This document shows, piece after piece, positions 1 through 64,000 of a stretch of DNA of 64,000 nt. Below the pieces are notes generated by a model, which saw only the letters and a list, made by a program, of their open reading frames with translations, did no database searches and was not told where the DNA came from. Source of the stretch: Phoronis australis (lineage: Eukaryota; Animalia; Phoronida); assembly GCA_002633005.1 (NCBI GenBank), contig NMRA01000249.1, positions 267,456-331,455 of the forward strand, read 5' to 3'. Position 1 is the first letter of the stretch. Each line of letters opens with the position of its first letter. Both the position numbers and the translations under genes were made by a program.

Positions 1-1215
1 AGCTCACCATCCGTTTTGTTCTTCTAGAATCCAAGATGTTTTCCATCGTGTTAATAACCTACCCTTTATTCCTTAAACGTAGGAAGCACAAGGGACATGT
101 ACTGTTGGTTCAGGTCTTCGAAATTCAAGTTCTGAACCAACCAAATTTTGCTAATCGGTGAGCTACTTCATCACACTGATTGGCAACATGTTCAAGCGTC
201 CAGTCAACTGCGTTCGCAATATTGTTCCATCAGGCTTTACCTGCTGCATGGCTATCTGACGGTATAGCTACTTCGTGTACATGTATAGAATTATTTTGGA
301 TTACCTTTTCAAACAGTTCTTTTTTAGAACTTTACAAGCAGCAAAGGCATCTGCTTGGAAAACAGAACTATATTCAGAGTTACATGTAGATAGTTTTTTC
401 AATTGGTTGTATATTAGTCAGGTATTTAATACGAAACCCCGCACCAACCAGTTCATTTATTTTTTTAGCCATCACTGTATGCTTTAATTGCTTATATCAA
501 TGTTTCTTTTATATCCGATTTTACCATTTCTAATTAGAATGAGACATTCCAATTTACTTTCAAATGTCTTGGTTTTTACTGAGCGATCACTTGGCGTGCA
601 CGGCAGTGGAAGTTCATTTCTAGCACTGTTACACATGTCAACATGATTTTGTTTTTGTTGATATAATCACTGGTTTGACCATCCAGGGTCCTGCTTAATC
701 GATATGGAAAGATCTCCGGATTGTCTCAACCATAAGAAACTCATCAGCAATACCTTCATTGCTCCCAATGGAATGCTATAGTAGGAAGTGCCAATGTCAT
801 CAGATGTTATCATAAGGTAACCTAAACGCTGTACCTTCTGGAAAAACTTCTTAAGGAACAGTTTTTCAATTCTACTGGCATAAAATAAGATTAGTCTTTT
901 CAAGTATTTTTGGAACGAACATAATATTATTTCATTCGAGTAGAGATACATGTACAGTACCAACCGAATGTTGCATTTGGGTTGCCAATATGGTCAAAAC
1001 AGCTGAAGTGCACCCAAGACGCTGATATGCGGCACACGTGCGTTCACGAACCCAAGAGCTGAGGACGCTGGGAGAATTTTGGTTGACACGATAGTTATAT
1101 AAACGTGTGAAGTTGCAAGTGAAGTTGCTGTTTAAGTACTTTCCAGTTATTCAATGCAACTTAATTTTTGTTAAAGTTTCTAGGCACATATTCGAACACG
1201 GGGGTTATGTCTAGA

Positions 1216-1325
1216 AAGTTGCATTGATACTCTCACTTTTCTCCAGATGTCAAGTTGCATTGATACTCTCACTTTTCTCCAGATGTCAAGTTGCATTGAT
1301 ACTCTCACTTTTCTCCAGATGTCAA
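1216..1325. repeat. 36-bp perfect tandem repeat x3
   Basis: AAGTTGCATTGATACTCTCACTTTTCTCCAGATGTC at 1216, 1252, 1288. Confidence 0.95.
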
Positions 1326-1843
1326 TGGATTTGGGAGACGTCTCCACAATTGTTGACACAGTGTTTACAGGAATGATTCAAATTATCGATGGTATAGTAA
1401 ATAATTGTTTTCGAGAAATGTACTAGAGTATTTTGTGCAAGAATTTTGCGTACATCACGAAAGGTATGGCGTGTGCCCCAGGTCTGCGCAGCCCGTTGAA
1501 CGACGCGTCTTCCAGGCACAGTAGTCAAATAGACACCAGTTATGTGACAAGGACGTGCTACTCGGAAATGATATATCATTCACTTTTCCATAAAAGGAGC
1601 CTATCTGTACAGAGGTGTGGGCTCTAAGAAAAACACTCCGTTTGATCGAGTTGATCTGCAAACTCTTCTGATGCGATTTTAGCGAACAGCTATTATCATT
1701 TTCAGACAACCCCGAACCACACATACATTGTAGCCTGTGACAGAGATTTCCGTAAAGAAGCCTTTTCGTAAACTCGAATTGTATAACTAGTACAGAGACA
1801 GCCAGATGTACCCTCAGATACGGTGTGGGTTTAGGAGGAGACA

Positions 1844-1905
1844 GTGTTGCTCAGCGGCTTGAGCTCCAGGCTGCCGTTTGGCAGACCTGGGTTGAAATAC
1901 CGGCT
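1844..1905 (+). mobile_element. Degenerate tRNA-derived SINE head
   Basis: TTGCTCAGCGG (A-like) and CTGGGTTGAAATACCGG (B-like) at tRNA spacing. Confidence 0.35.
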
Positions 1906-2712
1906 TTACTGGCTTGCAAGTAATCATGTGTCTCTTACCCTATGAACTCGATCTTACAAGTGAATATATGCAAGGGACTGCATGAAAACCTGTATTATAA
2001 AGTGAAAACGATTTCAGGGGGTTTACAAGTACTGAAAAATACACGCTCGTTTTTATCAATGTTATCGTATAATCGGCGCATAAACTGAAATCCAGGAAGA
2101 AAATGCAAAAAACTTCCGGTGAATGGTGGTCTCCAAGGTTAGAATTTATTGCTAAAAATGTACTTTAGTTAGGATTTTGGTGTCCATTTTCAAACATGCG
2201 TAGTTCTCCCAAACGTCCTCACTGGGCGTACAGTGTATCTGCGGAAACAACATTCATACGCACCTATTGGAGGTTTCTTTAGATGGATCTGTCACAAACG
2301 CGTCACCTGAAACCGAGTTGTATAATAAAGAAGCAAAAAATAACTTTCGGAAAATGAAAATATTTTCAAAATAATTATTTTATTTAGGAAATTGACTGAA
2401 GAAACACCTTTTCGTTGGGACGCTGTCATGGAAATGACACATTGCAGACCAAGTAACGAGGGAACTTTCCTAACATCGCCCATGGGTTAAAAGGCAGCTG
2501 TCGGTTGTTTGTCACTCAAATCATTCTTGCCAAATTTATGTAACAGCATGTCTCTTGCTGTCTGCGCTTGACAAATCCTTGGTTTCGCTTATCAAGCGAT
2601 GTCGTACGAATCATTACACAAAACGTTATCTCAATAACCCTTTGCTGACATTACTCACCTGGCACGGTAGGTAGTAAAATAAACGAGACGCAGTTAATTA
2701 GTCTTTGCAAAG

Positions 2713-3024
2713 ATGGCCGAGGTAGACGTAAACGTGCATTCGGAGAAACCCTTTCCTTCTCCTCCGCCTGATAATCAACTAAAACTCCAAGACGGTCGTG
2801 ATGGCCACACTGACGATATCAATGATGGTGTTAGTAGCAGCGTATCGTCGTGTAGTTCATTGGAGAACGGCGATAACAATGCGTCGCCACCTTCTTACGA
2901 AACGCAAGTATCGAAAAGAAAGGGCGAAACAACGAAAGAATTGACAGAGAACGTAAGACGCATGGTTCAAAAGGTCAACCACATCTCGGAACGGGTGGAT
3001 GAGTTGTGCGACATTACATCGAAG
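2713..3024 (+). CDS. SLC6 transporter exon 1 (cytosolic N-terminus, MAEVDVNVH...DELCDITSK)
   Basis: ATG in AAGATGG context, 104 open codons, strong donor AAG|GTAGGT at 3025; phase 0 matches the acceptor at 14860. Not conserved sequence, so linkage rests on splice logic. Confidence 0.72.
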
Positions 3025-9000: not shown

Positions 9001-12000
9001 TAGATTATAACCCGGACGAGAAGCCAGATCGCGTGTTGCGTAGCCCGACCTTGGGCCAAAACAACCGTCTCCCAGTGGTATTGCGGGTAAGTCAATCGTC
9101 GGTCACGAGAATGCAAGCACTGTTTTTTTTTACTTTTATACGAAGTTTGGTCTATACTTTAACGAAGTAGAAAACGTCAATTAGGCATAAAACCGGAAGT
9201 CCGAAATCGTTGATGTTTGACAATACAGCATCTTATAAATAATCACAAGATTTGCGTTTGAACGAAATTATGATTCGGGTTGGAAAAATGGAGATGCGTT
9301 GTTAACGGCGGGTGACATGTGAAACAGCTCTCTCGAGCGCTTTAACATTGCCTGACGCAGACCGTAATCATCAGATAGCCATGATTTGAGTAGAATGCGC
9401 AATCTTCCTTGAAGCTTGCCATGTTGTACTTAAGGTCTGTAATGAACGTTGGCAGCATCACACTCATTCAGTCATTTTAATGTAGAGTGTACCTACCGAC
9501 ATCGCAACACTTGTCGGGTTCTTTCCACAAGTAAACGTATGCTGCTGGTTACTGTGCTACACCATTATGATTGCGTAACTCATCATTTAAATAAAGGGAA
9601 AGATAATCTCTTATTAATAAAATTTGAGATGCAACGTCGACACCAATTGCCAAAATTCAATGGGCAAGTATCAGGTCTTGGTGTGCTTCTCTTGTTAATA
9701 AACTAGGGAGTGTCAATCATCCAATATAGTTTACTACCTCCACTAAAGAAGAGAGTACAAAAATAGACCAATGGCTCGATCAGCAGGTCTATGAAACAAT
9801 CTTAAATAGTAACGTGGCTATGTTCCCCAAACTTTGACGGCATTTTTAACCTTGTGACAACATCTATCATTCTTTTCAGTGTGGTATTCTCCTTGCTGTG
9901 TTCGTTTTTGAGTAACTATTTGGCACTGTTTCATGCAACCACTCCTAGATCTCTTGTTTGTAAACGATAACACTCATAAAAAAGATAAACGTCAGGTGGT
10001 TGTTTTGATACTCCCGTGGGAACGGCTTTTCAAGTTCATTAGAGTGCAAATAAAGTATAGTGTGAAACACAGTGACTAAAACATGCGGTCTAATAAATGC
10101 GCTGTCAGTTTCAGTTTCAAGATATTTTTCGGTAGTTTTACAACAAGGTCCAAGTACTTTAAAAATTGTCAAACATCCCAAATTCCTGGTCAAAACAGCC
10201 ATTAGTACATCTGCAGCAGGTTGCAAACCGTGTTCAGACCGAGGATCTGTGAAAGATATGTTTTGGTGGAGTGATATACTGGCCCTTTTCCGGGACGAAC
10301 GGGTTGTGCACACCCGTATACGATCTGTAAACAGTATTGGGTTTACGGAAAAGGAAGCAGTTTGGCCTGTGTGATGAGTTTGTCCTTCGTTTGGCCAAGT
10401 CGTGGGTTTGAGTCCCAGTGAGGCACTCTGCGTTAGGTCTCCAGCTCCACAGCTCAGCTTTAACTAGACTAGTAATGCATAAAATGGTCCCAGGCAGACA
10501 GTGCAGTGGGCCAACATGAGCGACCTGCACACGACTTGTACAGCGTGTTCGATGCCGCCTGCAATTATTATCTAGCAAAATGAGGAAATGTTGGGGAAGG
10601 TAAGGATATTTTGGAGACTTTCGCACGTAAAGCTATTTTTAATCTTTTATGGAGAAATTGTACATGTACAGTATCGCCTCAAATCAACCTCAACATTGAA
10701 TTTAAGACGATCGAGCAACACGCCTAAGGTATTTGAAAGGCCCAACATTATGGGGTATCTGGTAGAGACTGGTAGTTGCTTTTTTGAATGCTGTGCAATT
10801 AATTTCCTATCCAGTCCTGCCGTCCCAGTAAAACAGCCTACATTTTAAGCATATATTTTGAACAAAAGTTTCACACGTACATGTAAATATACTGTACACG
10901 ACAGCCATTAGCACGGAACCAGTGTGGTACATGTAGTCTTGAGGTGAAAATGGCGTCTCGGTTTTCGCCGGTTTGCAATCCGCGTAAAATACTGGCATTT
11001 TTGCACAACAGCATGGGCGAAGTTTTAACCAAATCGAATAGTTGATGAACTTCCGGAAGAATTGTTCTGAAAAAAGGAAACGAAGTGATGAATTAAATGC
11101 AGTGCTTTCTAACAATGCAAAATTACAATTAATCCGACAATTTATCATTACAGAGCAGATGTTTTGAACATATTAGCTGTATTTGAATGAATAAGCGTAT
11201 TCATGACAACGAAGTTTCTTGGATATTTAAATAACGGTTTAAGGATTGAACTGCTATTACGCAAATTCTACCCAGATAATGGTCGTTTTAAGCAAATAAA
11301 ACTATCGGCGATTGCATTATCCTCTGTTAATCTTGACATCTTATGGTCTTATCAGTAACTGTGCTCATTTAAAATCCCGTTTAAAGCATTTACCTGCCCG
11401 TGTACAATCGAGTAATAAATTAATAAATTTTTATATGCTCGTTTCAGGCTCTTCAAACGAAGAATACAGCTACTTCGGTAAGTGTTTGAGTGGCACAGCC
11501 TACTCGATTTATTGCACCTGTGCTCGCTGTATACGTAAATTACTGTAAATCCAGGTACATCGTGCGGTTTACTTTGAAAACATTTGGTAGACAACGACTC
11601 ACTCCTTATTGAGAACGCACACTGTGAATAGACGCAAGTAATTACTTTTGAAATGGTCGACTCTAGAGCAGAGGTCACATGTTCAAAAATGACGACATGT
11701 CTATGAATCCTCAGAACTGTAAAAAAACAGCAGAACAACGGTCGACCACCCCACACAATATTTTCAGTTTTGTGGAGTAGAGTAAAGGCTGGTGCTCACA
11801 GACACTGAAATCAGTTCAGTTTTGCAACGTACAACCGCCTTCAGAGCTTGGTGGAGCTCGGTGACTCCTCAACTATAGTTGTAAACGTACAACCAAAACA
11901 ACCGTTCAGCATAACAAAGCATCCGTCCTTCGGCGAATCCGATATAATTCGCAGAGCCGAAAAGGAGTGCGATCACGGTCGAAGAAAAAGCAAACCAAAA

Positions 12001-15000: not shown

Positions 15001-18000
15001 GGGAACGTGTGGAGATTTCCATACATATGTTACCAAAACGGAGGAGGTAATTTCCCATTTGATCACATTAAGAAAAAGAGATACCGCTGTGTGGTGTTTT
15101 TGCATATGGTGCACCAGTAACTCTATTCTTTGCAAATAAACTGAGGAGCTACCATTTATATGTGTGGTTTCATAGAGCTTGTGATCGAGGTGCGATAGCT
15201 TATTTTTCGGAAATAGTTGTGCAGAACGTGAAACCAGATTTCACTGTTCATGAAAAGGCCCCGATGAAGTATTGTCATTAACTTCTTATCCATAAGACAA
15301 CGGTTATGAGTTGAAATCTATTCGTTACCTAATGCAAATTACAAATTTCTCTTGGGAGCTGTTTACAACCTTCCGGATTTCTTTCCTCGTCCACATGCAC
15401 GGGCTTTCCGGCAGACGTGCGTCTTTCAATGGAGTTAACATACATGTAGGCGTACAAAAGCATTGGTCCGAAAGAATGTCAGACTATTAATATGTGACTC
15501 TTTAGCGTTGTTTAAGGAATAATGAACCTTCCGTTGAGTAAATCTTTTGACCACTAGTTCGTCAAAAGAGAGGAGTTTCGTAGCAGTGACCGGACAAATA
15601 TTTCGACCGGTATTTTTTATGCAGTTTTCCGCGACTGCACACTCTGGGGAGCCCACGAGCTAACACCCGCAGTTCATGGCAAATAAGCATTTCCCCTTGG
15701 GCGAAGTTCTTTAATATTTGCCCTCGAGCTGACTCATATCCCGGTCACCAACAAAGTTTCGCCTTCCCCTGGCTAAACCAGTGCTTTGGAATTTGGTAGC
15801 TGTCATTAATCCACGTAAATATAAATTTGGATAAAATTGAGGCCTAGACTTCCCTACGTCACGAATTAATGGGTCTGTGGTCATTAGTGTTTCACCATTG
15901 CACCTTTGATTGCGCCACATACTTATTGCTTGGAGGTAAATCTGACAATTGCATGTTGCGTAGATATTCAGAAAAGGGGGATGGTTGCCATGGACAATGA
16001 TTCATTTACCTTTGTGCTGGCATCCTTCATTTATCTATGTAACAACTCCCCTCCCACATTACCCCCTCTCCCTCTTACACTATTTCTCTTATTTCAGGTG
16101 CATTTTTCATCCCTTACGTCATCATGATGCTGTTCGTGGGACTTCCGGTATTCTTCCTCGAGTTGTCTCTAGGTCAATTCTCAAGCAGTGGACCTTTGAC
16201 GTGTTACAGGTTTTCGCCAATATTCTCGGGTAAATTTCGCAGGATAGGGTGAAAAATAGTAACTAGGTCAAGCAAGCAATGAAACGTAACTTTATATGTT
16301 GATCTGTCAACACTTGCACCGTACATTTGTCGGCAAATAGTTGTGTTTATTGGCCCAGTTGAAGAAGACTGGAACGCAAAAACTTCGTAAAAGTACCCTT
16401 TAAACAGGTGCAGGTGAAACTATTTCTTGAAGATGATAACATGAGCGTTATTCATCTGAAATATTGCTTGTATTTCTAAACGAAATTCGTAAGATTCAAT
16501 ATTTTTGCAACACATACGAAAGACAAACTCTGTCATCCCAAGCACGTTTCCAAATTCTCCTCCGCAACGATAACATGTGTGTAATTGCGCTGATGTTCAA
16601 GAATTACCAAAATATATAATCGCCCCTGTATTGCTCACATTGATGATCAAAGGTTACATTTGTCATTTACGGTAAAATGACTTTGTGCTATTAGTCAGGT
16701 TCACTATGTTCAAATTTTGACATTCGTTGGAAATTTTTGGCGAAAGTGGCAACTATACCTTTTTGGAAACATCATCGAATGACGAAACAGGAAAAATGAT
16801 TCCATTTTGGCAGACATCTTGGTGCCTTTTTGGATTTTCAAAAATAGCGCCAGAAAAAAAACTTGCTCAATGTCTCTGCACTTGGGTCACTTAGAATGTT
16901 ACTTTTTATGGTGCACCAGCATTTCATGGGGCAAGGTATTGAAATTTTAGTGACGGCCATCTTGGATTTTCAAAAATGGCGCTCCTAAAATAGATTTTGG
17001 TTATTATCTCTGTTCTTGGGTCTTGAGTGTTAGTTTCAATGGATACACCCACATTTTGTGGCGAAATGAGTCGAAAAACATTTATTGATAAAATGCTACA
17101 TATAACCCAAAACATCTTAGAATCAGCTACGAATCTTCTGCCTGAGAGAAAACCTGATCCATTCAGCTTTAGCCAATGACGAAAAAATCCTAGACGATAT
17201 AAGGAGAGTCTTCAGAGCAGCAGAGAGTATACGCCAGTGTGTTACTAACTTGAGAAGCCAACAGGTGTCACCTGTGTATCGTTAAACATCGGTGATGTAT
17301 CGTGTGAGCTATTTAGTAGAATTCAATGGATTACTGTTGGCCCTAAAGATGAGCTTCACTCAGAACCAATGCCATCTGCAGATTGGCAGTAAGGGCCAGT
17401 CGAAAAATCCTCTTCGGTTTTAAATCAAGTCAGCAAGTAATATACAAACCAAGCACAGATTCAGCAACATTAGGCAACACCATGCAATAGAAAACTCCCA
17501 AGTCCTTGAACCCGGCTGTAACTGCCATCATGACACCAGAAACGAGAAGCTAATAAAACTACTCAATGCGCAGAGATACTTTGTCTCACATGACTGCACC
17601 CTGCGCTAAGAAACTGCTCTAGGTAATGATGTGGTTGAAAGTTCCAGGTACATGTTGTTGGAAGGGCTTTATTTACCCCAATTCCTGAATAAGGATGCCC
17701 TTGTCGTCTTTGCTGTTGACAACACAGATTTTGCAGAAGATACTGCCGATGGAAAAGGCACAACTCATGGGACGGCTGTATCAGTGTATCAGAAGTCTGA
17801 TGTTCCCAGCGGCCTCATCACTCCACCTTCAACCATGAGGGAAGCAGAGATCCTCAGTTTCACCCCATGTCACGTACGTATGGTCCACTGTGAGAAGCCT
17901 ACACCACAAGCACGCAAAAAGAACACATGGGTTGCAGTCAACAAAGAGGAAATCTCTAGTGCATGTCAGGTGACAAACTTGGTTGACTGATAACTCTGGC

Positions 18001-34612: not shown

Positions 34613-34654
<42 letters not shown>

Positions 34655-47858: not shown

Positions 47859-48149
47859 AAAATGTTATCTCACTAGTGAGATAATGGAATATTACACGGT
47901 TGTATTGGCCATTTGAGGCTAATACTGTGGTATAATTACACGTTATGTAGCGTAAATTCTTTATCAAGAGCTGCTTTTCTATTTTATTTTATTTAGTGAG
48001 AACTCTGCTGCAGCATTTTATTGCCAAGTCATCATAGCCCGCACACTTAAGGTGAGTTTGTTTGCTCTCCACTTGAAGCCGCGGAGACGTGTTCATATAA
48101 ATCTCATTATATAATTCGACAATATAACTTCAAGCAGTCACCGAATATT

Positions 48150-48384: not shown

Positions 48385-48892
48385 ATATTCACTTCAGTTT
48401 TGACCAACATTTTGCTGAGATACCCTAATAAGGTCAAGAGCTCACATACAAAGCATTTGCTTGTCGCAAGGGTGGATCTGAAGGAATTTAACATGGGCGG
48501 CGCACCATTGGGGGCCATAGCCCCCCACTTTTTCCAAGCTACGCCGCACATGGTCTATAGGGGGTGCACCACAGGGGGCTCAGGGGGCTTTAGTCCCCCA
48601 CACTTTTTTCAGACCTGCACCTCTCATGTTAAACAGACGTTTCCTCAGTTGCAAAAACATGGTCCACGCACCAATAGCCTGCTTCATCAGCTGGTATAGC
48701 CGGGTTACTACGCTATATGGAGCTTACAAGTCAAGGCCTTTGCATGTGACACACGCGTGACCAGGAAGTCAATTGCAATACTGATTCTCGTATAATTAAT
48801 TCATGGAAAAGATTATTAATTTTCGAAGCCAAAAGGCACACACATTGGCATGTGTATCGGTAGATATGTATCAACGTAGGCCAGTCTTTGTG

Positions 48893-48927
48893 TATATAAG
48901 GATTCCCATTTTGACAGCAGAACAGTT
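48893..48927 (+). promoter_or_regulatory. TATA box and initiator-like site of gene 2
   Basis: TATATAAG at 48893-48900, CAGTT about 30 nt downstream, ATG at 48979. Confidence 0.55.
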
Positions 48928-48978
48928 GCTCTCTTTCACTTCAAACAGCGGTACTAGAACCTACAGTTGAGAAAAGAA

Positions 48979-49008
48979 ATGGACACACTGTTGATCTTCT
49001 GCATTCTG
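48979..49008 (+). CDS. Gene 2 exon 1 (MDTLLIFCIL, start of probable signal peptide)
   Basis: AAATGG start context, hydrophobic decapeptide, CTG|GTATGT donor; phase 0 joins exon at 50170. Confidence 0.6.
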
Positions 49009-49851
49009 GTATGTATTGGTTATGCTCGTCATATGAACTGTATTCTGGTATATAAAACTTCAGCTGTTTACAAACTATAAAGTCAACTGACAAGTTCAGA
49101 AATTGAAGAAATTGCCTCTAAAATTCAAAAAATAGGAAATTTTAAAATGACAAAGTATTCCTTCGCAATGCCGGTTGATGCAAGTAGGGTTGTTTTTGTA
49201 TAATGAACACTGGCAAAAACTAGTATTTTCTCAGCAATAATTGTATGTTAAATGATGCTGTGATACTTTGTACCTTGAACAGGAAATATAGGCAGTTTTG
49301 TACAGTGCGCATGTGCAATGTACGTAGGTGACATCTCTCGTGTGTTGTAATGTATCTAAACATTACTGCACGAGAAAATCGGGTAAAAGTTGAAGCATGA
49401 CATATCATAGATTTTTTGGCATGTACCTTATTTGTACACCTAGGAAGTATGATTAATTAGTTGGCTATTTTAAGATTTAAAAATTATGTCGGTATCTCTG
49501 AAATTGGTCCTGTTGCATTATGGGGATAGAATCTGAAGGTCAGAATGTCAATTTTAGCCATCTTCAAACTGCCGCCAAATACCAGTACAAGAAAACCGTT
49601 TACCGTTTCTACCATAATTGTTTCTATCCTATTTTTAATAGGATGTAAAATCATTAATCTAAACTCAGTTGCAATTCCTTCATTTCATAGGTGTTAATCG
49701 AGCGCGTGTGGGTGCGTGGGGGCTCATGTGAATTCGAAATTCTATTTGTGAAATATGATGATCCAAATCAGACAAATGAGGACACGTTTTCAGGGTCTAG
49801 CTAATACTTACATGTACAACAGACTGGTCAGTGATACATAATGTCAAACAT

Positions 49852-50099
49852 GACCCGTTCCAAAAAAATTGACTTAAGTTCGTTTTCGAATTAAGTCCCA
49901 ATATTTGTCTTAACTTCCGTACTTTGAAACTTCCACATCCGAGAAAATAACTAAAATTAAGACAAAACTTATATCAAAAACTTAATTCAAACTTAAGATC
50001 TCTTTCTTGAAACGGTATCGAGACAAATTTAAGTTTCACCTTAAAATTCAACGAAACTTAAGATTTGTCTTAACTAAATCAGTTTTGTTGGAACGGGCC
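49852..50099. mobile_element. Harbinger-like MITE with CTTAA subrepeats in gene 2 intron 1
   Basis: GACCCGTTCCAAAAAAATTGACTTAAG vs reverse complement GGCCCGTTCCAACAAAACTGATTTAG. Confidence 0.65.
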
Positions 50100-50169
50100 C
50101 CTGAGCTGCAAGAATACTTGTTAGCACGCATGCTGCAAGTAGTGAGGATCTTCATTTTCTTGCCTTCAG

Positions 50170-50354
50170 GATGTTGCGTTTGGTGTTTCGGCGGAATTAG
50201 GGTCTCCAACTCTAGCAGCCAATGCAGTATATGATGGAAACCGCAAGGAGGATCCCCTGGTTTACTATGAAGGCAACAACACCTTTAAGGCAGAAGTCAA
50301 CTTTTCCGTCAGCAATCCGCTTCCAAAATCAGCAACGCTCACCTTGAAATGCAG
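50170..50354 (+). CDS. Gene 2 exon 2 (DVAFGVSAELGSPTLAANAVYDGNRKEDPLVYYEGNNTFKAEVNFSVSNPLPKSATLTLKCR)
   Basis: CCTTCAG acceptor, open frame, AG|GTAAAA donor, phase 2 matches exon at 57671. Confidence 0.72.
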
Positions 50355-53300
50355 GTAAAATAATGTATACTCGTGTAAATGTGATTAGACTTCTTCAGGA
50401 CAACAGTAATGTTAGACAATTTGAAATGTAACAGCGGTCTATAAACTACTAAAGAAAAGTAAAATTATGTTCCCAATTTGCACGTAATTGTGACTTTTAT
50501 TTCATATATCTTCGAATCTGTGGATCGTGACAAAACACTTGCCTGAGGGAGACCGATTGACACATTTGCCAGCCAAAGGAAATGTACAAGGATTCGAACT
50601 CACTTATTTTACGATATACCCTTGATTATACAGATATTCTATTGTTGTTGAATTATAAAAATTCGCCCTCTGAAAAATTTAAAATAGAAATTAACGAAGA
50701 AAAAATCGTTTATTTTTGTATTTTAACCCAGAAATGAACAAAAAATAGAGCTTAACACGAATGCCCATCTCCCATGTTCCCACGGTTACAATTAGAAAAT
50801 TTGCGAGTATGCCTGCGGAAAATGCTTACCACATTACGCTTTGATAAACAAATTCTTTGGTTTCGGATGTACATGTAGATATGTAGATGTGTATGTACTG
50901 TAACTAGGAAATCCGACAAATTCACAGGATGGTATTTGAAAATGAGAGGGTACAGTTGAAATCTTAGTGATTTTAATGGCTGCCTGAAGTTGTAAAAATT
51001 CTAAAATCCGATCCCCAATTAGTACAGTACACTTAGACGATTTCTGCCTATCTAAAATAACACTCAAAGTCATCTGATGAAATTGGGACAGTTTCCAAAA
51101 ATATACTCATAATTCAAATGACTATAAAGCCATTGATTTTGGCTACGGTAGGAGGAGATCATAAAGGAATTATGTCATTAAATCAAGGTAAACGTATTGC
51201 TCATGGAATCCATTGTTAGTTTCTGATTTAGATGTTATGTTTCTACGAAAATCGACTGATTGATTGATTATTTCTTGAAAATTAGAAGCTAATTTTGTAA
51301 GAAATGACGAGGCTTCACAGATCTTAGTTCGACATTGGGAAAAGTCGATCTATCATCAGATCGCCAAATATCAAAGTAAACTAAACGATTTTTCTTTATA
51401 TGAAATAGGTCCCGACTATATTGATTAATGTCACACAGCTCCACGAAGTGTCCCAAAATGTCCTCAAAATTCAAATGGCAATGATTTTTATTGACTATGG
51501 AACTAGATTAGTGGCTGTGGATTGAAAAAGAAGTGGGGGTGGAGGGGGGGGGGGGGCGGAGGTGGTGGCCATAAGAAGAGGGGGTAGTTTGGTGAAGTAC
51601 CCCCCAATAATTTTTTTGCTTCCTGCGGGCTGATGGAACATTATATTGTCATTTATCCTTTGGTGTATCAAAATATATACCATCTTTCGTAAGAAATTAG
51701 GACATCCCACAGCGGTGAAAAATTACAAGCGTTTTAATGACAGGAAAGGTTTTTGCATCAGTCAAACCTTCAAACCACATTCATGGGGGAGGCAATGGAC
51801 GCCATCTGGTGAGCTCGTGAGTTTCAATATGGCCCTTTTGAAAGTCAGGTATTGCTAAAATGCGCAAGTATTGTGCTTCATGGGAAATGCCATGCGGCTT
51901 GTTAAAGCTATGACTGCATGATAAACCTGAAATGATACATTTACTATCCTCATACTTTCGTGTTACTCGATATATTCAGCAGTTGGCGTGAAAGAAAACT
52001 CACGAGGAATTAAACTGGCCATTGAGAAACGTCAAACGTCTAAACCAAGACATGCAGATTAAGAACCGGTCATCGAGATTTTTGCACGACATTTACCAAT
52101 TGTTTACCAGTCTGCTTTTTCCACAGGTGGCGGAGTGATTTGGGCGTGAGATAGGGGATGTATCATCTTAGTGATGTCTGGTTTGTTTAAATTAGCTCGC
52201 TTTAACCAAAACGGGCATTTCCAGACAGAAAAGCATAACAATTTATTTTGTGCAAGGCACTAAACACATTTGTCAAGTGTGCAGCTACCTATCTTTGTCA
52301 ACTCGCCATTTCATCTAGACATGTGTGAGGGTTTCCTGGGCGCTGATTTGTAGTTCGACACTCGCTTACTCCACCCTGATTTTGGTAAAGGGCCTATCAA
52401 TTACAGATGTAAACTATAGAAATATTTTATACTCTTCTAACTTTGATATAAGGTTGATATTGCGTCCAGGCTCTGAACTCACTCCACCATTAGTTTACAT
52501 AACTGATAACTCGACCAAGGGTCATGACACCATCTGTATGCCATGCCACAGAGTGAGTTTTTCTTAAATGGATCAATTTATGAAATGTTTAAGCGTATTT
52601 TTGACAAAAGTGAGTCGATTTTGACCAAAGACATACCGTTGTGGTTCACTATGACCAAAGATATACCGTTGTGGTTTATATAGTACTATTAGCATTCAAA
52701 ATTAAAAGAGAAAATACAACAGTTGAGATAATCGAATGCTCTGGCCCATTCCACTCACAGACAGAAGGCGGCTTATCACGTTCGTAAATGAAACGCCAAG
52801 CTGAAGCGTGACCGCAACTGCTACAGTACATACATCGTGCTTGTAATGTGGCCGTCCGCAATAATCTATTCCAGTTCATGGGCGCCGGACATCAGACACT
52901 GAGCGGAATGGACAAATGTAAATATGATGTTTTGATACGGGTCCTTTTGAAGTGAAGTTTCGTATAACATTCAGCATGGCAATGGCATAGGAGTAAAATT
53001 ACTAAAGGGAGGGTTTATCATGTAAATTCAGAAGAGTTGATGCCTCGATGTGGGCAAAATAAAATGTTTCGTCATTAAATTTTAATTAAGAATACGTGTA
53101 TAAGACAATTCAGTGCAAATCGCTCAGTGTGGGGACATTCACTTTCCATACAGAAAATTCAGTTTCACAAGCTTTGAAATCAGCAAACGTTTTGGAAAAT
53201 GATAGGAATTTGAAAAGTTTATCTATTAGAAAGTAAAAGATGTACTCTGGACATGTAGTACACCAAAATGGCACCAAAAACCTTATTCTCAACAATTTTG

Positions 53301-53834
53301 AGAGACAACAGAGTTCCCATATCGAAATTTGTCATAACCAAAGTTTTGATGAAATAGTTGACTTGCACTGAAGTTTGTGGCTATACGGCAATTACAAGAA
53401 CACACGATTTATATATCCTTGAAGTGTGACCTCGTTTTCAATGTGACATATAATCTCAATTAATAATCAACGCTGCCAATCAAAAGAAACGTCAAGTGAT
53501 TTTTGTTAAGTTACTTGAATTTCTGGAGATTCGAAGTTTGCATGAAGTACTTGATTTTTTTCATCAAATCAGATTAAAAGTTTTTCACCATCAAGGTTTT
53601 TCCAGTTGAAGCTGAACAGACAATAACTGTACATGCTGGCAGTTACGAGTGTGTAAGTTTACTAGCAGGCAATGGTTATGGAATAAAACAAATGCTAAAA
53701 TGCCTTATTAAAGTTCACACCACGACGTGCTCTTTATGCAATAATTAAAATTAAATTCCTCAAATGTAGTCACATACATGTATGGACAAAATCAACGTAC
53801 ATTTGAATGGTGTGATACGATAGAAACGTTGAGG

Positions 53835-54682
53835 GTTCCAGGATTGTTTTAAAACACCTTGACTCCTAAGCCCCGGCCACGACCCATCGACCAACCACCT
53901 CCTCGACCCACATCCCCCACGACCCACAACCCCCTTGACCCATGACCTGTAGAAATAGATCGACGTATCTGCTCATTTTGCACATTTTATGATCATATTG
54001 CGTCACTGAATGACTTTACATGAAACGTACATGTAACTACACGCGAATCGGCTCTGGCTCAAGTCTGTTGGTTAAAAACAGAAAGTAGCGTAAGCACATG
54101 ATCAGAACTAGTGAATTAAGAGCGTACTATCGCTGTCACGGAAATAGTTCCAAGAGCGACTACCAATGACCCTGCTCTCTTAAACTTTGGGAAGGAATGC
54201 ACATAGTTTTACATTTTTATTATTTGCTTTCGTATACACCTTCACAAAAGCTCCGACCGTGTAATATTCAAATACATTTTTAGTTAAAGATTTTTTTTTT
54301 CAAACTGTATTTATTGAAGCAATTACATATTTATCGGTTCCTTGCAACTCTCCCAAAAAAGCTTGAATTTGCTATTCACTGAAGAGCACACTCTGCCGGA
54401 AATGCCATTTGTAACTTTGGTACATGTAGTACATGTAGGTCTGTCATTTGATTTTGTCGCGATGTTTTTACTTCTGTTTTTGGCTTTCAGACTTGTCGAA
54501 TCGGCTCTCTTAATTTCAACAAAATAGGGAAAAGCCGGCCGAGCTCACTGCCAAACTCGCTGGTCCTGCAAGTCAGCGCTGTTCTATTTTCATATGGAGT
54601 CGAGCTTTTGTACACTACGTTGAGGGGATTATGGGTCGTGGGGGTTGTAGGATATGGGGATAGAGGGTTTTAAGTTGGCCCC
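53835..54682. mobile_element. Second copy (opposite orientation) of the 41660-42445 element
   Basis: CAGGATTGTTTTAAAACACCTTGAC start, CGACCC repeats, CCATGACCTGTAGAAATAGA matches reverse complement of 42303-42322; G-rich right end. Confidence 0.6.
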
Positions 54683-55289
54683 AAGATTGACGGGTTAGGT
54701 CAGTTTGAACTTACGAAGAACGACGCTCTGAAGAATATGGGAGTCGGTAGATTAGTTCAGTTTTTGGCATCCAGATGATTCCTTCCATTCAACATGGCGA
54801 TATCACTACCGGGAAATACTGCGAGCAGAAGTTTGACGATAAAATACTCTAGGGAAATGGTAGGAGATATTTTCATGTATTTCGTGCCGACGTTTGGATT
54901 GGAATCGAACGATAACAAAATCGTGAGTCGTCATATTTTAAAACAATTACCAGACCAGCGACTTCGAGCAGTGATGCCTTATGCATTCAGCCGTTACTGG
55001 TTCTCAGGTTACTTTAGGTTATTTTAGAGGACTGTATACAGTACTGCAAAAAACAATGCATACCTGACCATTCTGGGAAGTCACAATGCTCTCAATCTCA
55101 TTTCTTATTTCCCCCAAGACATTTAAAAGAGAATGCCACTCGATTTAATTAGTGTTTTTACCATCTCAATCGGTATATATTCACATGGCCTCTTATACGG
55201 TCGACCTCACCTTGCCGAGAGGTGTCGCGTTAACCTGTAAGAAAGGTGAGAAACGACGCAGCGACGTCAGTGGTTCGTCTGCAGAGTGA

Positions 55290-55584
55290 ATGCCGCTATA
55301 TTGCGGTGCATCGTTCCCGCTTGTCCGAGCTATGAAGCTGCGAAGAAAGCAGGTATATCGTTTTTCGACTTTCTCGAGAGCCCTACATGCTTAGGAAGTG
55401 GCTCGCGGTAGTGAAGAATGAAAGGTATGCTGTTAATAGCAAGTATGAGGCCGTAAAATATCTCCGTGTCTGTGGCCGGCATTTCGTCGACAGTGATTTC
55501 TCTGACGACTTCCTGCTTACCAAAGAACGATCCATACGTTCCGTTGCCTGTGTACGTTCACGGTACCTCTCTATTAATTCTTGA
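55290..55584 (+). pseudogene. Frameshifted THAP zinc-finger domain (second transposon relic, gene 2 intron 2)
   Basis: RCIVPACPSY...GISFF then LRKWLAVVK...LRVCGRHFVDSDF: THAP C2CH pattern. Confidence 0.78.
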
Positions 55585-56239
55585 TCAGTGTATTCCTGTT
55601 CGAAACCTAATGATCCGACCCGTGAAGTCTTCGTCGGATGCCAGTGTGCTCTTGACTAAGTCGGGATTGGCGGCGGGCGAGTTGTCATGTAGACGTTTAT
55701 TATTCTGCGTTCTGTTTCAAAATGAATTATTCTCATCCTAAAATGATCCTAACCATGCTTATATGAAACTGAAACAAAGTGTGTCTCATTAGATACACTT
55801 TGTAACGCCTTGGAATGCCCACGCGTGCAGATGTTTTGAGAAGCCAGCAATGAATAAACCACTGCGTTACCGGCTTTTGATGCCGGCAACAAAGGCACCG
55901 AGGCAGTGTGAGAGCATGCTAATTCAGTGCTTGCTGATAGAAAGATGTGGTTGTAAAACAATTACTCGATTTTATATGCTATGGTCACATGTTATGGGAA
56001 TCTTCATTTAGAAATACAAATATATTACATTATTCAAATCATTTGGTTACTGTACATCCTTTGCCCTGGCGGTCTGTGGAAGGGGAACCCGACTTTGCGG
56101 CCCCCGACTACTAAGTAGATTTTTAGTTTCGTGGCTAATTCACATAAATTATTACGTGCACATTAATTCTTTGGCTCACTATTACAGTCTTTTCGTGACT
56201 GGAGGCTTAGTTTCCACCTCAAGCTGGTTTATGTTCGTG

Positions 56240-56352
56240 TCAGTCCCGGCGGCCGCGACGGTCCTGATCGGGTTCCGAGCCACTGGCCGCGATAATTGAG
56301 TCAGTCCGGCCGCGACGGGCCTGATCGGGTTCTGAGCCACTGGCCGGGATAA
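56240..56352. repeat. GC-rich about 60-bp tandem duplication
   Basis: TCAGTCC..GGCCGCGACGG.CCTGATCGGGTTC.GAGCCACTGGCCG.GATAA twice. Confidence 0.85.
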
Positions 56353-57670
56353 CAAGCGTTTTGAGTTGTTAGAACTCAAAAAATCACAAGTATAAACAAC
56401 ACATATCTAGATTCTCCGGTCTGTATTTCACAGAAGAATACTTCGAATTTATCTCCTTATCTCCAAACAGACCCCAAACTCCTGCTACAGACATTGGTAA
56501 ATTGGCCTGCGCGAACTTTTTAGGCTACGGTGTGTCCAAATACCAGTAAATCCGTAACAGCGAAATACATGTAAAACAACATGTTTTTATAAGAACTCGA
56601 TGTATTTTTAAGGAGTTTACATCGAAGTTTGATGATTTATTGGTATTAAAAGATGAATTCAAGCGATAAGCTGACGCCACTAACCCGTGTTGTGAACTGC
56701 TGAACAGACTGCGTGTGAAACCAATTACGTCATTGAATAATTTCAATACTTCCGTCTGCCGTCAGGTGTCAGGTAACGCAACCGAGCCTGCCGTTAACGA
56801 GTAGAACTACTCGATCTAAAGTGATACAAAATAGGTTGTTTTTGGGCAGCGTTCTCCTTTAAACCATTTGTGCGGCAACTTCTTGGAGCCGCGAGATCAT
56901 TCCCACTCTTCCCTCCATGAGAAGGGGCAGTGTTTAGACGGGAAGAAGTCCACACCAAACTCGGAATGAGACACATTGTCTGTGCCGTAGGCTCAGCAGC
57001 CAAGTCCTTGTCAAATCCATCTTTGATCAGCAGAATGTTTCATTCTGTTACATTTTCCGAAGTGTTTATGTAGTGCAGATATTAGATCTCCGTCACATGA
57101 TTAACATTATCTACACTAATTTCACGGCTGACTGTACATGGGTGGCGCAGCACTGAAAAAAGGTGGGTGACTAGAGCCCTCGCACCCTCGGTGGTGCACC
57201 TCCCATAGAGCATGAGAGGCGCAGCAATGAAAAAAGAGGCGGGCTATAACGTCCAGCCCCTTACGGTGGGCCGCCCATGCTACAGAACACTTTGCTGTCG
57301 ATGTTTAAAACAACGAACAACCCGTATCTGCTCACATCTTTGAACTTCCTTTTTTCTTTTATACTATCAAAACCTTAATTCTTGTTCTAAGTGCCGTCAA
57401 ACTATTATTTTCTATTAAAATAAAATATTTTTAAAACCAGTATTCATTGAAAAATAATATTTGAGATAAAATGTTTCATCTTCAACTGGCGATTGTGAAG
57501 ACAATTACGCGAAAGTGCCAAGGGTTGTCAGGAATGGGTGATTTATCCCACAGCTAATATGGTATTATGGTACCTCTTAACACTTACGCTAAGGCACTTC
57601 AAAGTGCGCGATTTTACTCGTTATTGTGGATAAATTAACTCTGTGTTTGACCAATACAGTTGCTTTTCAG

Positions 57671-57936
57671 AATGAAGATGGCCTATTCTAATGACGCCGA
57701 CAATTTCAAGCACAACGAGGTCTTTGTCCAGAAATACTTGTTTGATATTGCTCCAAACGATACACTGGAGAACACTCAGAACTTTTCCTTCTCAACGCAC
57801 ATCAGCGAAAAGGGCGGTTTTAATGGCCAAATGCAATGCAGTGCTCACCTGAGCTTTGTGGACACCGCTGGACGTCAGCAGGACAAATCACTGACGTTGA
57901 GAAACGTTCCGCGAGTGTACGCATACTCGGCGTCGG
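57671..57936 (+). CDS. Gene 2 exon 3 (MKMAYSNDADNFKHNEVFVQKYLFDIAPND...GQMQCSAHLSFVD...YAYSAS)
   Basis: TTTTCAG acceptor, 88 open codons, G|GTGAGT donor; phase 2-1 fits neighbours. Confidence 0.78.
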
Positions 57937-59702
57937 GTGAGTACTGAAAACTTAGACCTCAAGAAAGGGGTACCGGAAGCATTACATTGTCATATCCCAG
58001 TTAAGGTTTCAGTCTAATCTGTGTTTCATTGTAGTGTGGACTACTGTCATAACCACTGCATACGTTTCCAATTTTGGATTACGACTAGTGCCCGGTTTCG
58101 AAATTCATTTCACAGTGTTTTCAACATGACCAATGCAGGGCGATGCTTTACCGCCTGGTCTCGTTCCCCAATGATTTTGCATTTACAGTAACTTCCAATG
58201 AATTTTCCTAGTGTCACAAGTATCGTATGGTTTTAATAATATTATTTTGGGAGAAATTGTATGTAGGAACAAGATATTGAAAGCAAAAACAATGATACGG
58301 CCCGGCATGGAGGGCGTTGCCATTATAGAAAAATGTCATCTTTACGCGAAATATTCAAACTGACTAGAACAGAATGCTCAATTCTAGTCACATCACAGAC
58401 CACCTGTCAACACTACATGTACAACTTCATGTTGTATAACGATTTTACGTATGGCTTTCACATTATTGGGGACAAATAAAACAACAAGAATAATATATAT
58501 TTTGAGGTGTATTGGGAATTTCAGGGTCACAGCTCTACAAATAAATATTTCACAGAAAGAAACAGATAGGTTCCTTAGTTACAAGAGATAACACTCACAT
58601 TTCCGATACCCAAAGTGTAATTGAGTAGCGGATACCAAGTGGCACATTATCATGGGATCTAGGCGCCACCTTTGACCTATGTCAAACGCTTTGTTTTGAA
58701 TGAGGCTCAGCAATTATTTCTTCTTGAAACCATTTTAAATCCAATGAAAGTACAAAAACATTCGTATAAAAGTGCAGAGAACGCAATATTTTGGATATTT
58801 TTGGAAAATTCGATTCGAGAGTTTTTTTTTTAATTTGTTTGCACCACCGAGATCTATCTATCTCCAGGATATTCTACATGTACATGTAACTGTATAGCAA
58901 TTGGATTTAATTTTGCTTTTTTTGCTATTGCATCCGACTTGTTATGTTTAAACTGTTTGTTCACCAGAGTCCATTGCATGCAGTAAGGCACGCTTAGCGC
59001 TAGTCGCCGTAACTGTTCTTGTTATTCAATGAGTACAGGACTGTGACTAGTCCGTAATTATAGGTACTGTAAGCGATTGAAACCACTTTTGTGTGTATGC
59101 GGCATTGATGATTTGAACCATTTATTCCAATAAAACATACGGCGACGACATGCCCTCTCCTTTCACGAGTGCTTGTCTCGATCCGCACCGGGTCATTGGC
59201 TGCAAGACGGATTCAGGCAAATTCTTTCAAAAATTATTTGCCACATTTTGTCAACAAATTCAATACTTTTGGTTTTATTAAAGTTACTGTTGTCGGTTAT
59301 TTCATCCCCGTTTGCAGGCTGTTAATAGACACTGTTCCAGTCGCACAGAGGGCGTTTTTGAACTATACTTCCACTTTTGCGTTTAGTTCAAAATGGCGGT
59401 GTGTTTTTCGTGTCAGAATCATGAGTGGCGTGTTTATTTAAACTCTCTTCAACTACGAATTGTGCATTGTTTATGGGATAGGTACTTCTTGGGCCCTTAC
59501 AACTTAATATAAATATTTAATAAGGGTTAAAACGTGTGCTACTAGGAATTGAAGGTCGATCCATAGGTAACCCCAAAGTGTGCGCAGTCAGCTCAATAGG
59601 GGAAACAAGTACAGTTAAGACACTGCAAAACGCTGTGGGGAAACCAATATACTGTAATCATCTCATGAAGTTTGACTAATTCGTAGACCATGTTTATTCT
59701 AG

Positions 59703-59867
59703 TGGACGGAGCTTGGACTGAGTGGAGCTTGGAACAGTCTTGCGTCGTATCTTGCGGTGAGAATACTACTTTCAGAACAAGGAATTGTACTAATCCTGCA
59801 CCTGTGGGGAATGGTGCGGACTGTCCTGGAGACGAGCTTGACGGCTGTTCCACCGAAGAATGCATAG
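59703..59867 (+). CDS. Gene 2 exon 4: thrombospondin type-1 (TSP1) repeat (VDGAWTEWSLEQSCVVSCGENTTFRTRNCTNPAPVGNGADCPG...)
   Basis: VDG.W..WS, CS/VSCG, R.R.C.NPAP..G..C.G signature; TTCTAG acceptor phase 1. 3' end uncertain (donor at 59868 or 59874, or stop at 59893). Confidence 0.88.
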   Translation, partial: WTELGLSGAWNSLASYLAVRILLSEQGIVLILHLWGMVRTVLETSLTAVPPKNA

Positions 59868-60710
59868 GTACATGTAATGCAGGCAATTCCTAGTGTACAT
59901 TATCAGTATAATATATGAAACAGTAATCAGGTGTGCGTCATTCAAAATGGAGTAGTTTCGCGTTTTTTTATAAGATACATACAGTAGAAGTTGCAAGCAG
60001 GAGCACCGTATTTCTGCGTATCTTTTCATTTTTGCTTATCGAACATTTATTAATGCATTTTAGGGAAAAGAAGATTATTAAAGGGTTGATGAACATAAAA
60101 TTAAATTAATTCAATAGGCAGGGGATATAATATAGTTTTTGTTCTAGTAGATGGTTCAGACAAATCCCTTGGAGTACCAATTTTCTAAAGTCTCTGGTCT
60201 GAAACCCAATACAGAAAAACATGTTTCTCACCGATAGCGGTTTGTAGGTTTAATCAGAATAAATGACCAGCTTTTGGTCAAGCAGTTTTAAGTCGTGATT
60301 TGCAAAAGTATTTGAACGAGAGCCTTTTCATCCTGTGCGAACAATGAGGATTCTTTAAAGAAGCGGGTTTACACAGATTGCTCCGCTTGTGTTGGTGTCG
60401 TTTGTCATCTCTTGTCAGTGATGATCGCAGATCGCGTGACACGTACATGTATACACCCCGGCCAACCCGCGATCGAGAACGCCCGGAAGGCGATTGAGAA
60501 CGAAATTTGGGGCGAAAAGCGAAGCCAGGCAAGGTGAGTAAATTTGATGAATTTTCGTTGTTTTTACTTCCAATGTGAAAACAAAGACATGAGTTCAAGG
60601 CGCAACAGATTCAGGAATGGCAGGTACACTGTAGAGGTTTAAGCTAGTGTCTCTTCCAATTATAGGAGAAAAATTACGTTGACCGAGGCATCGCATGAGC
60701 AGAAGGNGAG

Positions 60711-60716
60711 GTGCGC

Positions 60717-60751
<35 letters not shown>
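60711..60751. repeat. (GT)n microsatellite next to a single-N contig join
   Basis: GT array at about 60718-60751; N at 60708. Confidence 0.9.
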
Positions 60752-60752
<1 letters not shown>

Positions 60753-61151
60753 ATTTATGTTCTGTTACATACATGTAATAGAACTGGCCACTTTCCCAGG
60801 AATTACCATAGACCTTAGGAATTCACGTTAGGCTTCGTGGAAAATAGCCTTTCTGAAAGGCTGCATTCATTAACTAGCCAGAAGGAGGCTCTGGTCCAAC
60901 AACCTCTCAACATCTTGACGGGAACGCATCGTAGTGTGCAGAACAATAATGAGCTTTTTACTTATAAAACGTGAAAAAGATTACAGAATAAGTGTGGTGC
61001 AATTAATTAATCACATTTTGCGTCATTACTGTGTTACTTTCGTATCAAAACTGAACAACAACATAGCATATTTCTATCATTAAATTGCCATGAGCACTAC
61101 ATGTACATCAAGCATAATTTTAGTTTCGCAAACGAATTTATTTCATTTCAG

Positions 61152-61210
61152 AAAACAAGTTCACTGTTATTGTGAGGCGAACTTCAACGAACATGTTACC
61201 CACGGCGTGA
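61152..61210 (+). CDS. Possible terminal exon of gene 2 (ENKFTVIVRRTSTNMLPTA*)
   Basis: Good acceptor TTTCATTTCAG; phase-1 reading gives a short tail and TGA. No homology support. Confidence 0.3.
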
Positions 61211-64000
61211 AGGTACACCCTACCAGGGTTTTAAATGCAGACATATACACTGTACTTTAGTTTAGACGAAACCACTGAGAACAAGGGGATCTAAACTCGA
61301 AGACTCACCCAGAAGTTGTTCCATGTGGCCTGTGAGCCAGGGTTAAACAATTTATTGCAGCAGATGAACGCGAGTGTAGAATCTTCGTGTAAAATTGTGA
61401 CAGCATATGGAAAAAAGCAAATAGCCAGTGAATTCAAATAATGATGATAATCTTGCCCATTGGGAGAGAGGGGAGAGCGGCAACATTTAACGAGATGATT
61501 TAAAGATTCCCACTCATAAACATCTGGGATCTAAAAAAAATGGTCAGAAGTTGTGTAAACTGGTGTGCTGATAAAACGGGTGGGGTTTTACTTGATGTTT
61601 TACTGATAAAATCTATACAGAGATGAACAGATTGACTTGTGGCACCCGTGTGGCTTGAATAAACGTTGTATTTGACTCTTCTGTTTTGGTCCTAAGTTCA
61701 CCGTGCATCTTCAGATCATCATCTTCAGGTTAATGTGACATTGAAAAAGACTGAGACAGTTATAATACACGTAGTATATTGGGATTTTCTTAAAACATAG
61801 TCAAAATGTTGTCAAAGAATGTATTTAGGACTGATTTATAGTATAACAGGTATCAACAACAATATGAAAGCAATTTCTACAATAATCATAGACATATATT
61901 TTCTTTTAAAATACTAATTAGTCTGAACAAATTTATGTAAGTATTGCCCAATGACATGGCCATTTAAATCTACCTAAACACTACAAAAATGTACTGGTTC
62001 TGTTAGAGATCCTTTTGAAATAACACAAATATATAAAGAAACTTTAGGAAAACAGGTTCAAACCAAAACGTCAAAATACTATCACATCAGACAACTACCA
62101 ACCATAAACTCTGTAAATTTGAATAAATTATAGTGACTTAATAACCTTCAGCACTGGACTTAATGATTTCATTCATGATGTTTCTGCTTGCTATGCTTCT
62201 AGAGGGAGGCATACTGTTTGCATGACATTCCACATTCACCAAAAAAGGAGTTACCTCTTTCTGGCTCACCCTTTCCGTGAAACATTGATCACAGATAGGA
62301 CATTGAATCTACTTGGTTCCTGAGCACGATGCTCCATGTTGTGTTTTACTATATTGGTAAAAAACTTAACGCATGCAACGCGTCAATCACAGGGCTGGTA
62401 AAGGTCTTGCTTATTGTACTGTCACTGTGTTTTATTGCCATGTGGACATAGTAAGTCGATTTAATAGTTCCTAAACGAGGCTCCACAACATACTGTACAC
62501 ACACACACACTCCTTTCCGACATGCAGCAGTTGTAACATTCTTCTTTGAAGGCGTGGACGTTAACACACTGAAGGACTGGTCGTGTGGCTACAGTTCAAC
62601 TGAAAAAAATCAATCGTATTCTGTTATGTTTGTTAGGCTAAATCTCACTTAGAAGTGATGAAAAAACAATTAAATGTAATTAAAAACCTACACATCAACT
62701 CATTCAGGCTCCGTATTACTCTAAAATTCTTGACATAATACTGTAACTTAACGACTATTCTGTCCAATGCAGAGAAAAAAATGCGCGTTCACGATCGCTT
62801 TTTTGCTTTCACGATCGCCATAGAGAATTAACGACTTCGTTCCAGATAGTCGTCTCACGCAAGGACCTGCTTGTATCGTTAAATATCTCAAATTGTTTCA
62901 CAAATCATAAATAACAAAGGTGTCACAAGGTACAATTAAATTATAAATGTCACACGCCTCTAATTCTTAAGAACCCTGGAATTGCTAATAACAAGTAGAC
63001 ATTGTCGATTTTACGAGGGGCAAGGCATTTTACCGAAAGCCATTGTATTCTGAGCTCTTTATTTCAAAAAATAAGCAAAAGCCAAGTATTATTTCAGATC
63101 CACAACAAAGGTTACACTCTGACGCTTTTCTGCTTTTCTGTGTGTAGCATTCGTAGCAAAATGACCCCTATTTAAGGAGAAAATGACACTTAAACTCACC
63201 GGATACGTCATTGCATGTCGTCTGCCAATTTTGGTGCAAGGTCTCGTTTTCGATCGCCATTCGCGTTCTCGATCGTGGGTTGGCCGGGGTGGTATACGTG
63301 CACGCAAAATTTTTATGAATGATTTTTTTCAGCCTGCGTGACACGGCAGTCAAGTTGTATTTTACAGCAGCTACAGGCTTGGGGTGTACTAGTATATCTG
63401 CTATTTTCGGTGTTTTCGTTAGAGTTTGAGCTAAACGTATTTCTAAGTTGAAGTTTTCTTACATTTCTTGGTCGAGTAATACATGTGCAGGACACCCAGA
63501 ATTTGTGGATGATGCACGTTCAGACGCTTCTTAAAAATGCTCCTTGAGCGCGGTTTTTATCATTTGTAGGTAGAAAGTATTCCGAAATTTATCGTAAAAT
63601 TGACAAAAAGGCAGTGTTTACAAAAGTTGCAGTTTTGATTTGGACTTTTGATTGTTTTGAGAACGACTTTAAACATTGACTCACATAAAGAACATCAACT
63701 GTGTAGTGCAATAGGTGAGCAAATGAGGCAGGCATTAGTAATGCATATTGTTTTCCTAATTTCAAACATATTGGGGCAAGTTCGAGACTTTTTGTGATTT
63801 AAGCGTTGTACTCAGGTGCAAAATTTCTTGGTGTATTAAGAAACATTGTCAACGACATCTTTATTTAATTTTTGTTTAGATTTCAGAACTCTTATCATAG
63901 TAATGGCATGTGAAAATTTTGCGCATGGAGCTGAACCCAAAGTGATGTTATACATGTAACCATGTTTCTACCAAATGTAGGAGGGAATTTTGGAGAAAGA

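Follow-up and report, generated by a model that had tools for sequence, protein, structure and literature searches.

A recurrent palindromic octamer in a Phoronis australis contig probably marks repaired excision sites of Tc1/mariner/pogo-type transposons

One palindromic word, TACATGTA, recurs throughout a 64,000-nucleotide stretch of the Phoronis australis genome (GenBank assembly GCA_002633005.1, contig NMRA01000249.1, positions 267,456 to 331,455 of the forward strand; hereafter the window), and its presence could reflect repaired transposon excision sites, replication slippage, or a binding site maintained by selection. We addressed the question of how these words arose by counting them and by comparing individual sites with homologous proteins, other repeat copies, and alleles. 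Where the ancestral state can be checked, the words are six-nucleotide insertions at TA, and they are probably scars of DNA transposons with CAG-type ends. Coordinates are those of the window, and strand is given where one was assigned.

The octamer is in large excess across the window

Exact matches to TACATGTA numbered 56, approximately 35-fold above chance, which makes it the top genuine 8-mer by count in the window. One hundred dinucleotide shuffles of the window gave a mean of 1.51 and a maximum of 5, and order-2 and order-3 Markov models with the motif masked predicted 1.6 to 2.2. The excess described in an initial annotation of this DNA (about 55 words by eye against about 2 expected) was thus upheld at 56 against 1.5, including against the Markov background; 12 of the 13 coordinates it quoted were exact (58415 should read 58414), and its GC content of about 38% is corrected by base counts to 39.7%. 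The 56 words collapse to 51 loci (47 single, three double, and one triple), corresponding to 0.8 loci or approximately 0.85 words per kb and to approximately 1.3% of TA sites, and together they contribute 336 nt, about 0.5% of the window DNA. Within the window we saw no significant clustering and no dense blocks of loci, short gaps were not commoner than between random TA sites, and density was unrelated to CpG depletion (rho −0.01). The field as a whole, including two companion word classes described below, is as follows.

278–63958: 56 TACATGTA words in 51 loci, 29 TACAGTA/TACTGTA and 10 TACA(C/G)TGTA, by word counts

The words arise as insertions at TA

A dead transposase-like reading frame offers an ancestral reference for the scars within it. 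The following sites were compared with its homologues.

17145–20357, + strand: dead transposase-like reading frame inside an intron of an SLC6 gene, with 47 homologues
17649–17656: decayed, one-mismatch scar TACATGTT, two extra codons; net two-residue gap in 42 of 45 spanning alignments
19181–19188: TACATGTA on a frameshifting net deletion in homologue alignments, with no clean +6
19534–19541: TACATGTA, two extra codons in 9/9 in-frame alignments (6/6 under a stricter span filter); no CATG in the flanks
19611–19618: TACATGTA, two extra codons in 9/9 in-frame alignments
20230–20237: TACATGTA, two extra codons in 7/7 in-frame alignments

Three of the four perfect sites in this frame are therefore exact two-codon insertions, and one decayed copy behaves likewise. 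When the frame was aligned in a frameshift-aware manner with a profile of seven long homologues, 19 insertions were found, five of 6 nt and 14 of other lengths. Four of the five six-nucleotide insertions coincide with TACATGTA or its decayed form (the chance of three of five falling near a perfect site is 9e-5), and the remaining one, at 19370, was rejected as a scar since it lies in a poorly aligned linker and is not of the TA-scar type. Because four of five six-nucleotide insertions are scars but 14 of 19 insertions have other lengths, the process dominates the six-nucleotide class and not insertions in general. The frame itself belongs to a class of about 1500 amino acids, has no Pfam match, and has many unnamed homologues, including in fish and frogs; it forms the most CpG-depleted 4-kb bin of the window (observed/expected 0.55), and its C-terminal piece, used as a query, found no homologues. 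The frame may belong to the Academ family; a literature search on this point yielded no paper.

A complementary approach used other copies of high-copy repeats and alleles. Reads of run X5 and contigs of runs X1–X3 were compared with positions 38790–58789 of the window, and the repeat-copy results correspond to 12 of 228 indel records and 24 of approximately 13,750 loose-end records.

47320–47329: TA-CA-TT-TG-TA (+8) in a high-copy repeat; plain TA in other copies, the 8 nt being absent in 2552 of 5198 X5 reads
47557–47565: TACACTGTA (+7) within a high-copy repeat; elsewhere the repeat continues from TA without the insert, as seen in 4320 X5 reads and 29 X2 contigs with loose ends behind 47558
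56566–56573: TACATGTA in a high-copy repeat; plain TA in other copies, the 6 nt being absent both from 2025 of 4526 X5 reads and from X1–X3 contigs

The loose ends behind 47558 match the window sequence downstream of TACACTGTA. Among the records listed, sites were found in two states only, empty and scarred. Homologue and repeat-copy comparison together support an ancestral TA at seven sites (17649, 19534, 19611, 20230, 47320, 47557, and 56566), and TACATGTA words thus arise as +6-nt insertions at TA wherever this can be checked, which bears out what the initial annotation had proposed. Two other candidates were rejected, namely a 5-nt indel at 47690, which does not have the TA-CA..TG-TA form, and a loose end opening with CATGTA at 41664, which is a repeat boundary; a 5-nt indel at 56021, located between two TA dinucleotides, is of ambiguous type. 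When the window was compared with itself, no pair of repeats spanned a TACATGTA site, and the high-copy-repeat primer yielded 0 loci in one metagenome scan. A 370-nt segment at 50865–51234, which opens with a cluster of scar-like words, stands in place of 12 nt in other repeat copies.

Single-copy alleles were compared over 43100–45700, a region picked because six-nucleotide gaps were hinted there, and three allelic indels (two of 6 nt and one of 5 nt) were resolved to letters. The two six-nucleotide cases were the following.

43646–43653: one 6-nt unit missing from the other allele (indel at 43645; 4 of 5 X5 reads and one contig each from X1 and X3); CATG in the flank
45072–45073: empty TA in the window, with CATGTA added on another allele (indel at 45067; one X4 contig of depth 3.1, and 0 of 11 X5 reads); CATG in the flank

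Contigs also differ from the window by a net +6 nt over 44147–45043 and 57695–58486 and by a net −6 nt over 48549–49983, which are length differences only.

Companion words, flanks, and stacks resemble Tc1/mariner products

Two related word classes are enriched in the window alongside the octamer. TACAGTA/TACTGTA occurs 29 times against 10.0 expected, and TACA(C/G)TGTA, i.e., TACAGTGTA/TACACTGTA, 10 times against 0.74, while no enrichment was seen there for TACACTA/TAGTGTA (9 against 7.9) or TACGTA (11 against 13.6). CA..TG stands out among the 16 inverted dinucleotide pairs. When scars were collapsed to TA, only two of the 51 loci had an adjacent CATG and 49 did not, so the insert was not copied from the flank.

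The flanks are themselves biased. The triplet A-Y-R precedes TA at 27 of 102 half-sites compared with 7.9% of other TA sites (p 2e-8), and A at −3 remains enriched after ATG halves are removed (p 0.002). The same bias appears in the 7-mer (12/58) and 9-mer (6/20) word classes; C at −4 is not enriched in scar flanks. As the Tc1 target consensus is given as CAYATATRTG (PMC9635669), the scar flanks, judged from their letters, resemble the palindromic target preference of Tc1.

Extra tandem units numbered five against approximately 0.7 expected, and the stacks are listed here.

947–959: mixed stack in which one TA is common to a CATG scar and a CAG scar; also at 10661–10673 and 42001–42013 (three stacks)
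31456–31469: double scar, then a related word; likewise 58875–58888, with a further double at 43449–43462
38847–38866: triple scar, from the word map

The mixed CATG/CAG stacks are not tandem duplications. Tandem and mixed stacks fit repeated use of a site, the scar itself being a good half target.

Proposed mechanism and its difficulties

We consider it quite likely that the words are repaired excision sites of CAG-ended Tc1/mariner/pogo-type DNA transposons, and we infer the parent, its ends, and the route of repair as follows. An element would insert at TA and duplicate it, consistent with the confinement of Tc1/mariner insertion to TA with TA duplication (PMC2170065), and its ends would likely read CAG...CTG. 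Excision would then proceed by transposase cuts placed 2–3 nt within both ends, so that CA(G) and (C)TG stay behind on the flanks. Retention of 2+2 nt by end-joining would give TACATGTA, the commonest product, retention of 3+0 nt would give TACAGTA/TACTGTA, and retention of 3+2 nt would give TACAGTGTA/TACACTGTA, such that the enriched word set would be the expected leftovers of CAG...CTG ends. Tc1/mariner elements are described as cutting a few nucleotides inside their ends to leave 3' overhangs, which end-joining turns into footprints (PMC8151067), and the fill-in of 2-nt overhangs assumed by the initial annotation should be replaced accordingly. Each scar would create two new TA sites, each with a Tc1-like half target, and we propose that these are therefore re-hit, which would account for the doubles, the triple, and the mixed stacks. 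Complete elements would be lost or move on, and the near-neutral scars would persist until eroded by point mutation.

Several observations weigh against this proposal. A scan of the window for terminal inverted repeats (TIRs) flanked by TA returned only scar-to-scar and AT-rich chance pairs, with no CA..TG element among them (the initial annotation had likewise seen no parent), and no Tc1/mariner transposase domain was found by Pfam in 164 of the 189 open frames of at least 68 amino acids in the window; the other 25 are largely frames that coincide with SLC6 exons or with the dead transposase. The window shows no enrichment of the one-sided words TACATA/TATGTA (48 against 43.6), and no filled allele appeared among the repeat-copy and allele records listed. 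Both letter-resolved allelic six-nucleotide indels adjoin CATG, so that slippage fits equally and the direction could be either way, and the insertion at 45067 comes from a single low-depth contig. The allelic 5-nt indel at 44844–44848, also from one low-depth contig, contains CATG and is not TA-flanked. The word at 19181, on its net deletion, does not conform. Finally, since rice excisions are reported as clean in just 8 of 94 cases (PMC4423477), scars this uniform would need unusually faithful repair.

The sole clear TIR element of the window was considered as a parent and ruled out by its 5-bp target duplication and CAC ends.

60454–63291: TIR element with CAC..GTG ends, its 5-bp target duplication coinciding in part with the scar at 60444, from the TIR scan

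This element is 2.8 kb long and non-coding, has 29-nt TIRs, was inserted onto the existing scar at 60444, and itself bears scars at 60770 and 61098. We take it to be Transib-like.

Alternative origins of the words

The lack of a parent in 64 kb containing approximately 80 excess scar-like words could also mean that transposon-like ends were inserted without a full element ever being present at most sites, whether by abortive integration or as a tiny end-to-end junction, or that another TA-targeting family or an enzyme of unknown kind was responsible. The strong uniformity of the 2+2 product and the +8 and +5 oddities would also suit such an origin. The word series and flank bias nevertheless match Tc1/mariner, and with a few thousand copies spread over several hundred Mb, a family would frequently be absent from a single 64-kb window; we therefore regard an origin without full elements as unlikely. 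Replication slippage, by which hexamers would be duplicated in tandem as in a microsatellite, draws on the tandem-compatible nature of both allelic indels, on the four loci that are arrays, and on the hexamer doublets, of which the window has 27, seven of them built from the TACATGTA unit. Against it, no CATG that could have served as a template adjoins 49 of the 51 collapsed loci, the transposase and repeat-copy cases started from plain TA, and the mixed CATG/CAG stacks are incompatible with duplication. Slippage is refuted as a general origin and is very improbable as an account of the words, but it may add units to existing scars.

Selection for a transcription factor site of the Irx/TALE homeodomain or Myb type could be suspected because TACATGTA is reported as a preferred Irx site (PMC3520976), because PsMyb37 of Phytophthora is reported to bind it (PMC11134190), and because perfect copies greatly exceed decayed ones. 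The sites, however, originate by insertion in dead coding sequence and private repeat copies, are spread evenly across the window, vary between alleles, and decay by transitions, including a C>T change at 54030 seen in 16 of 16 X5 reads. Maintenance by selection thus appears extremely improbable, and some scars may later have been co-opted as binding sites. Excision of CAG-ended elements remains our preferred explanation, and its age and rate are considered next.

Decay and rate of scarring

One-transition variants of TACATGTA numbered 27 against 11.4 expected, and transversion variants 24 against 24.8. These counts suggest, as a rough estimate from the words themselves, that scars decay neutrally by point mutation, at a mean of approximately 3% per base. 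From this decay and the density of approximately 0.85 words per kb, we infer roughly one scar per 60–80 substitutions. Contig counts give, also roughly, one six-nucleotide indel per 30 substitutions; six of 24 long contig pieces differ from the window by a net ±6 nt, alongside 186 substitution calls. The pieces are non-independent and represent about four distinct events, most of them seen as length differences. Scars would thus be roughly 30–80 times rarer than substitutions, and the process is probably recent and ongoing. The initial annotation had suggested a dominant mutagen, which holds among small indels of at least 5 nt but not more broadly, given that 14 of the 19 fossil insertions are not of 6 nt, that scars are far rarer than substitutions, and that they make up about 0.5% of the DNA.

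Gene context and other features of the window

Two gene features are listed here.

14851–37620, + strand: gene for an SLC6 transporter, with 14 homology-mapped exons and a putative first exon at 2713–3024
59869–59876, + strand: scar within the probable splice donor of a thrombospondin-1 exon (59702–59867), from a Pfam TSP_1 match and the sequence

The best-scoring named single-domain homologues of the SLC6 protein are nemertean, annelid, and brachiopod, at approximately 50–57% identity, which suggests a lophotrochozoan-like invertebrate as the source. Its exons hold no TACATGTA loci; as only 1.0 was expected there (P of zero 0.36), this carries no weight as an argument. The initial annotation was correct in placing none in the exons but counted 16 of them, where we find 14 and the putative first exon, and the zero it drew attention to is uninformative. 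In the thrombospondin-type gene, the scar at 59869 likely gives the putative donor two GT sites separated by 6 nt, and with them a possible in-frame choice of two extra codons. Exon-like open frames at 57651–57944 and 50146–50355 have no Pfam match and possibly belong to the same gene.

A THAP-domain remnant at 55336–55581 lies within a very high-copy repeat block at approximately 54800–57450. At 38074–38775, two nearly identical 349-nt copies flank a single N, likely an assembly artefact. The word TAGGCCTA occurs at 13495, 31066, 40189, and 43261 (4 against 0.4 expected), one copy being exonic; these words are possibly scars of a second family with GG..CC ends, and we found no literature report for TAGGCCTA.

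Discussion

The footprint and its chemistry are already known, and what appears to be new is such a density of footprints in an animal. In Caenorhabditis elegans, taCATGta is the Tc1 footprint and is called rare (PMC3520976, citing Eide and Anderson 1988). The two systems share the word, the TA target, and a flank bias like CAYATATRTG (PMC3520976, PMC9635669), whereas the window carries the word at 0.8 loci per kb as standing genome variation with its parent unseen. Sleeping Beauty excision is described as leaving cag or ctg (PMC5224488), and ZB excision as leaving 0–3 bp (PMC7913693). The second enriched word here, TACAGTA/TACTGTA, is similar to the Sleeping Beauty product and to the Tc1/mariner cut 2–3 nt inside the ends (PMC5224488, PMC8151067, PMC2170065, PMC7913693); unlike Sleeping Beauty, the window is dominated by the 2+2 product and is enriched in the 3+2 product as well. 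A survey of DNA-transposon excision in rice likewise counts the process among genome-wide sources of small mutations, but the rice excisions are mostly messy (PMC4423477), whereas the window offers one stereotyped scar that is countable in a single sequence.

The same abundant palindrome is known as Phytophthora motif-1/AM-20, TACATGTA, and as the Irx site (PMC3520976, PMC11134190). In that work the word is read as a transcription factor site and the footprint idea dismissed (PMC3520976, PMC11134190), whereas here it is seen to arise by insertion at TA. The literature that we found on TACATGTA concerns oomycete and fungal promoters, and in a search that left out most subscription papers we found no report of scars at such a density in the genome of an animal.

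A cut-and-paste transposon ordinarily erases the record of its past moves, so that lifetime counts of excisions can seldom be obtained. A stereotyped scar present almost once per kb provides a countable, datable record of excision and a defined mutational signature for invertebrate indel spectra. Being in frame, the scar can lengthen a coding sequence by two codons or displace a splice donor while the gene stays intact, and because its word is a reported Irx/Myb binding site, it both supplies new regulatory sites and confounds motif discovery. Tentatively, and as a possibility we would entertain without yet favoring it, a resident CAG-ended family may be a standing, sequence-specific germline mutagen here and in many other marine invertebrates. 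It would write the commonest segregating multi-base indel (approximately one per 30–80 substitutions), re-target its own scars, rewrite splice donors in frame, and seed Irx-type sites by the hundred thousand; one genome would suffice to read and date its excision history, and among the published TACATGTA "regulatory motifs" some would be its scars.

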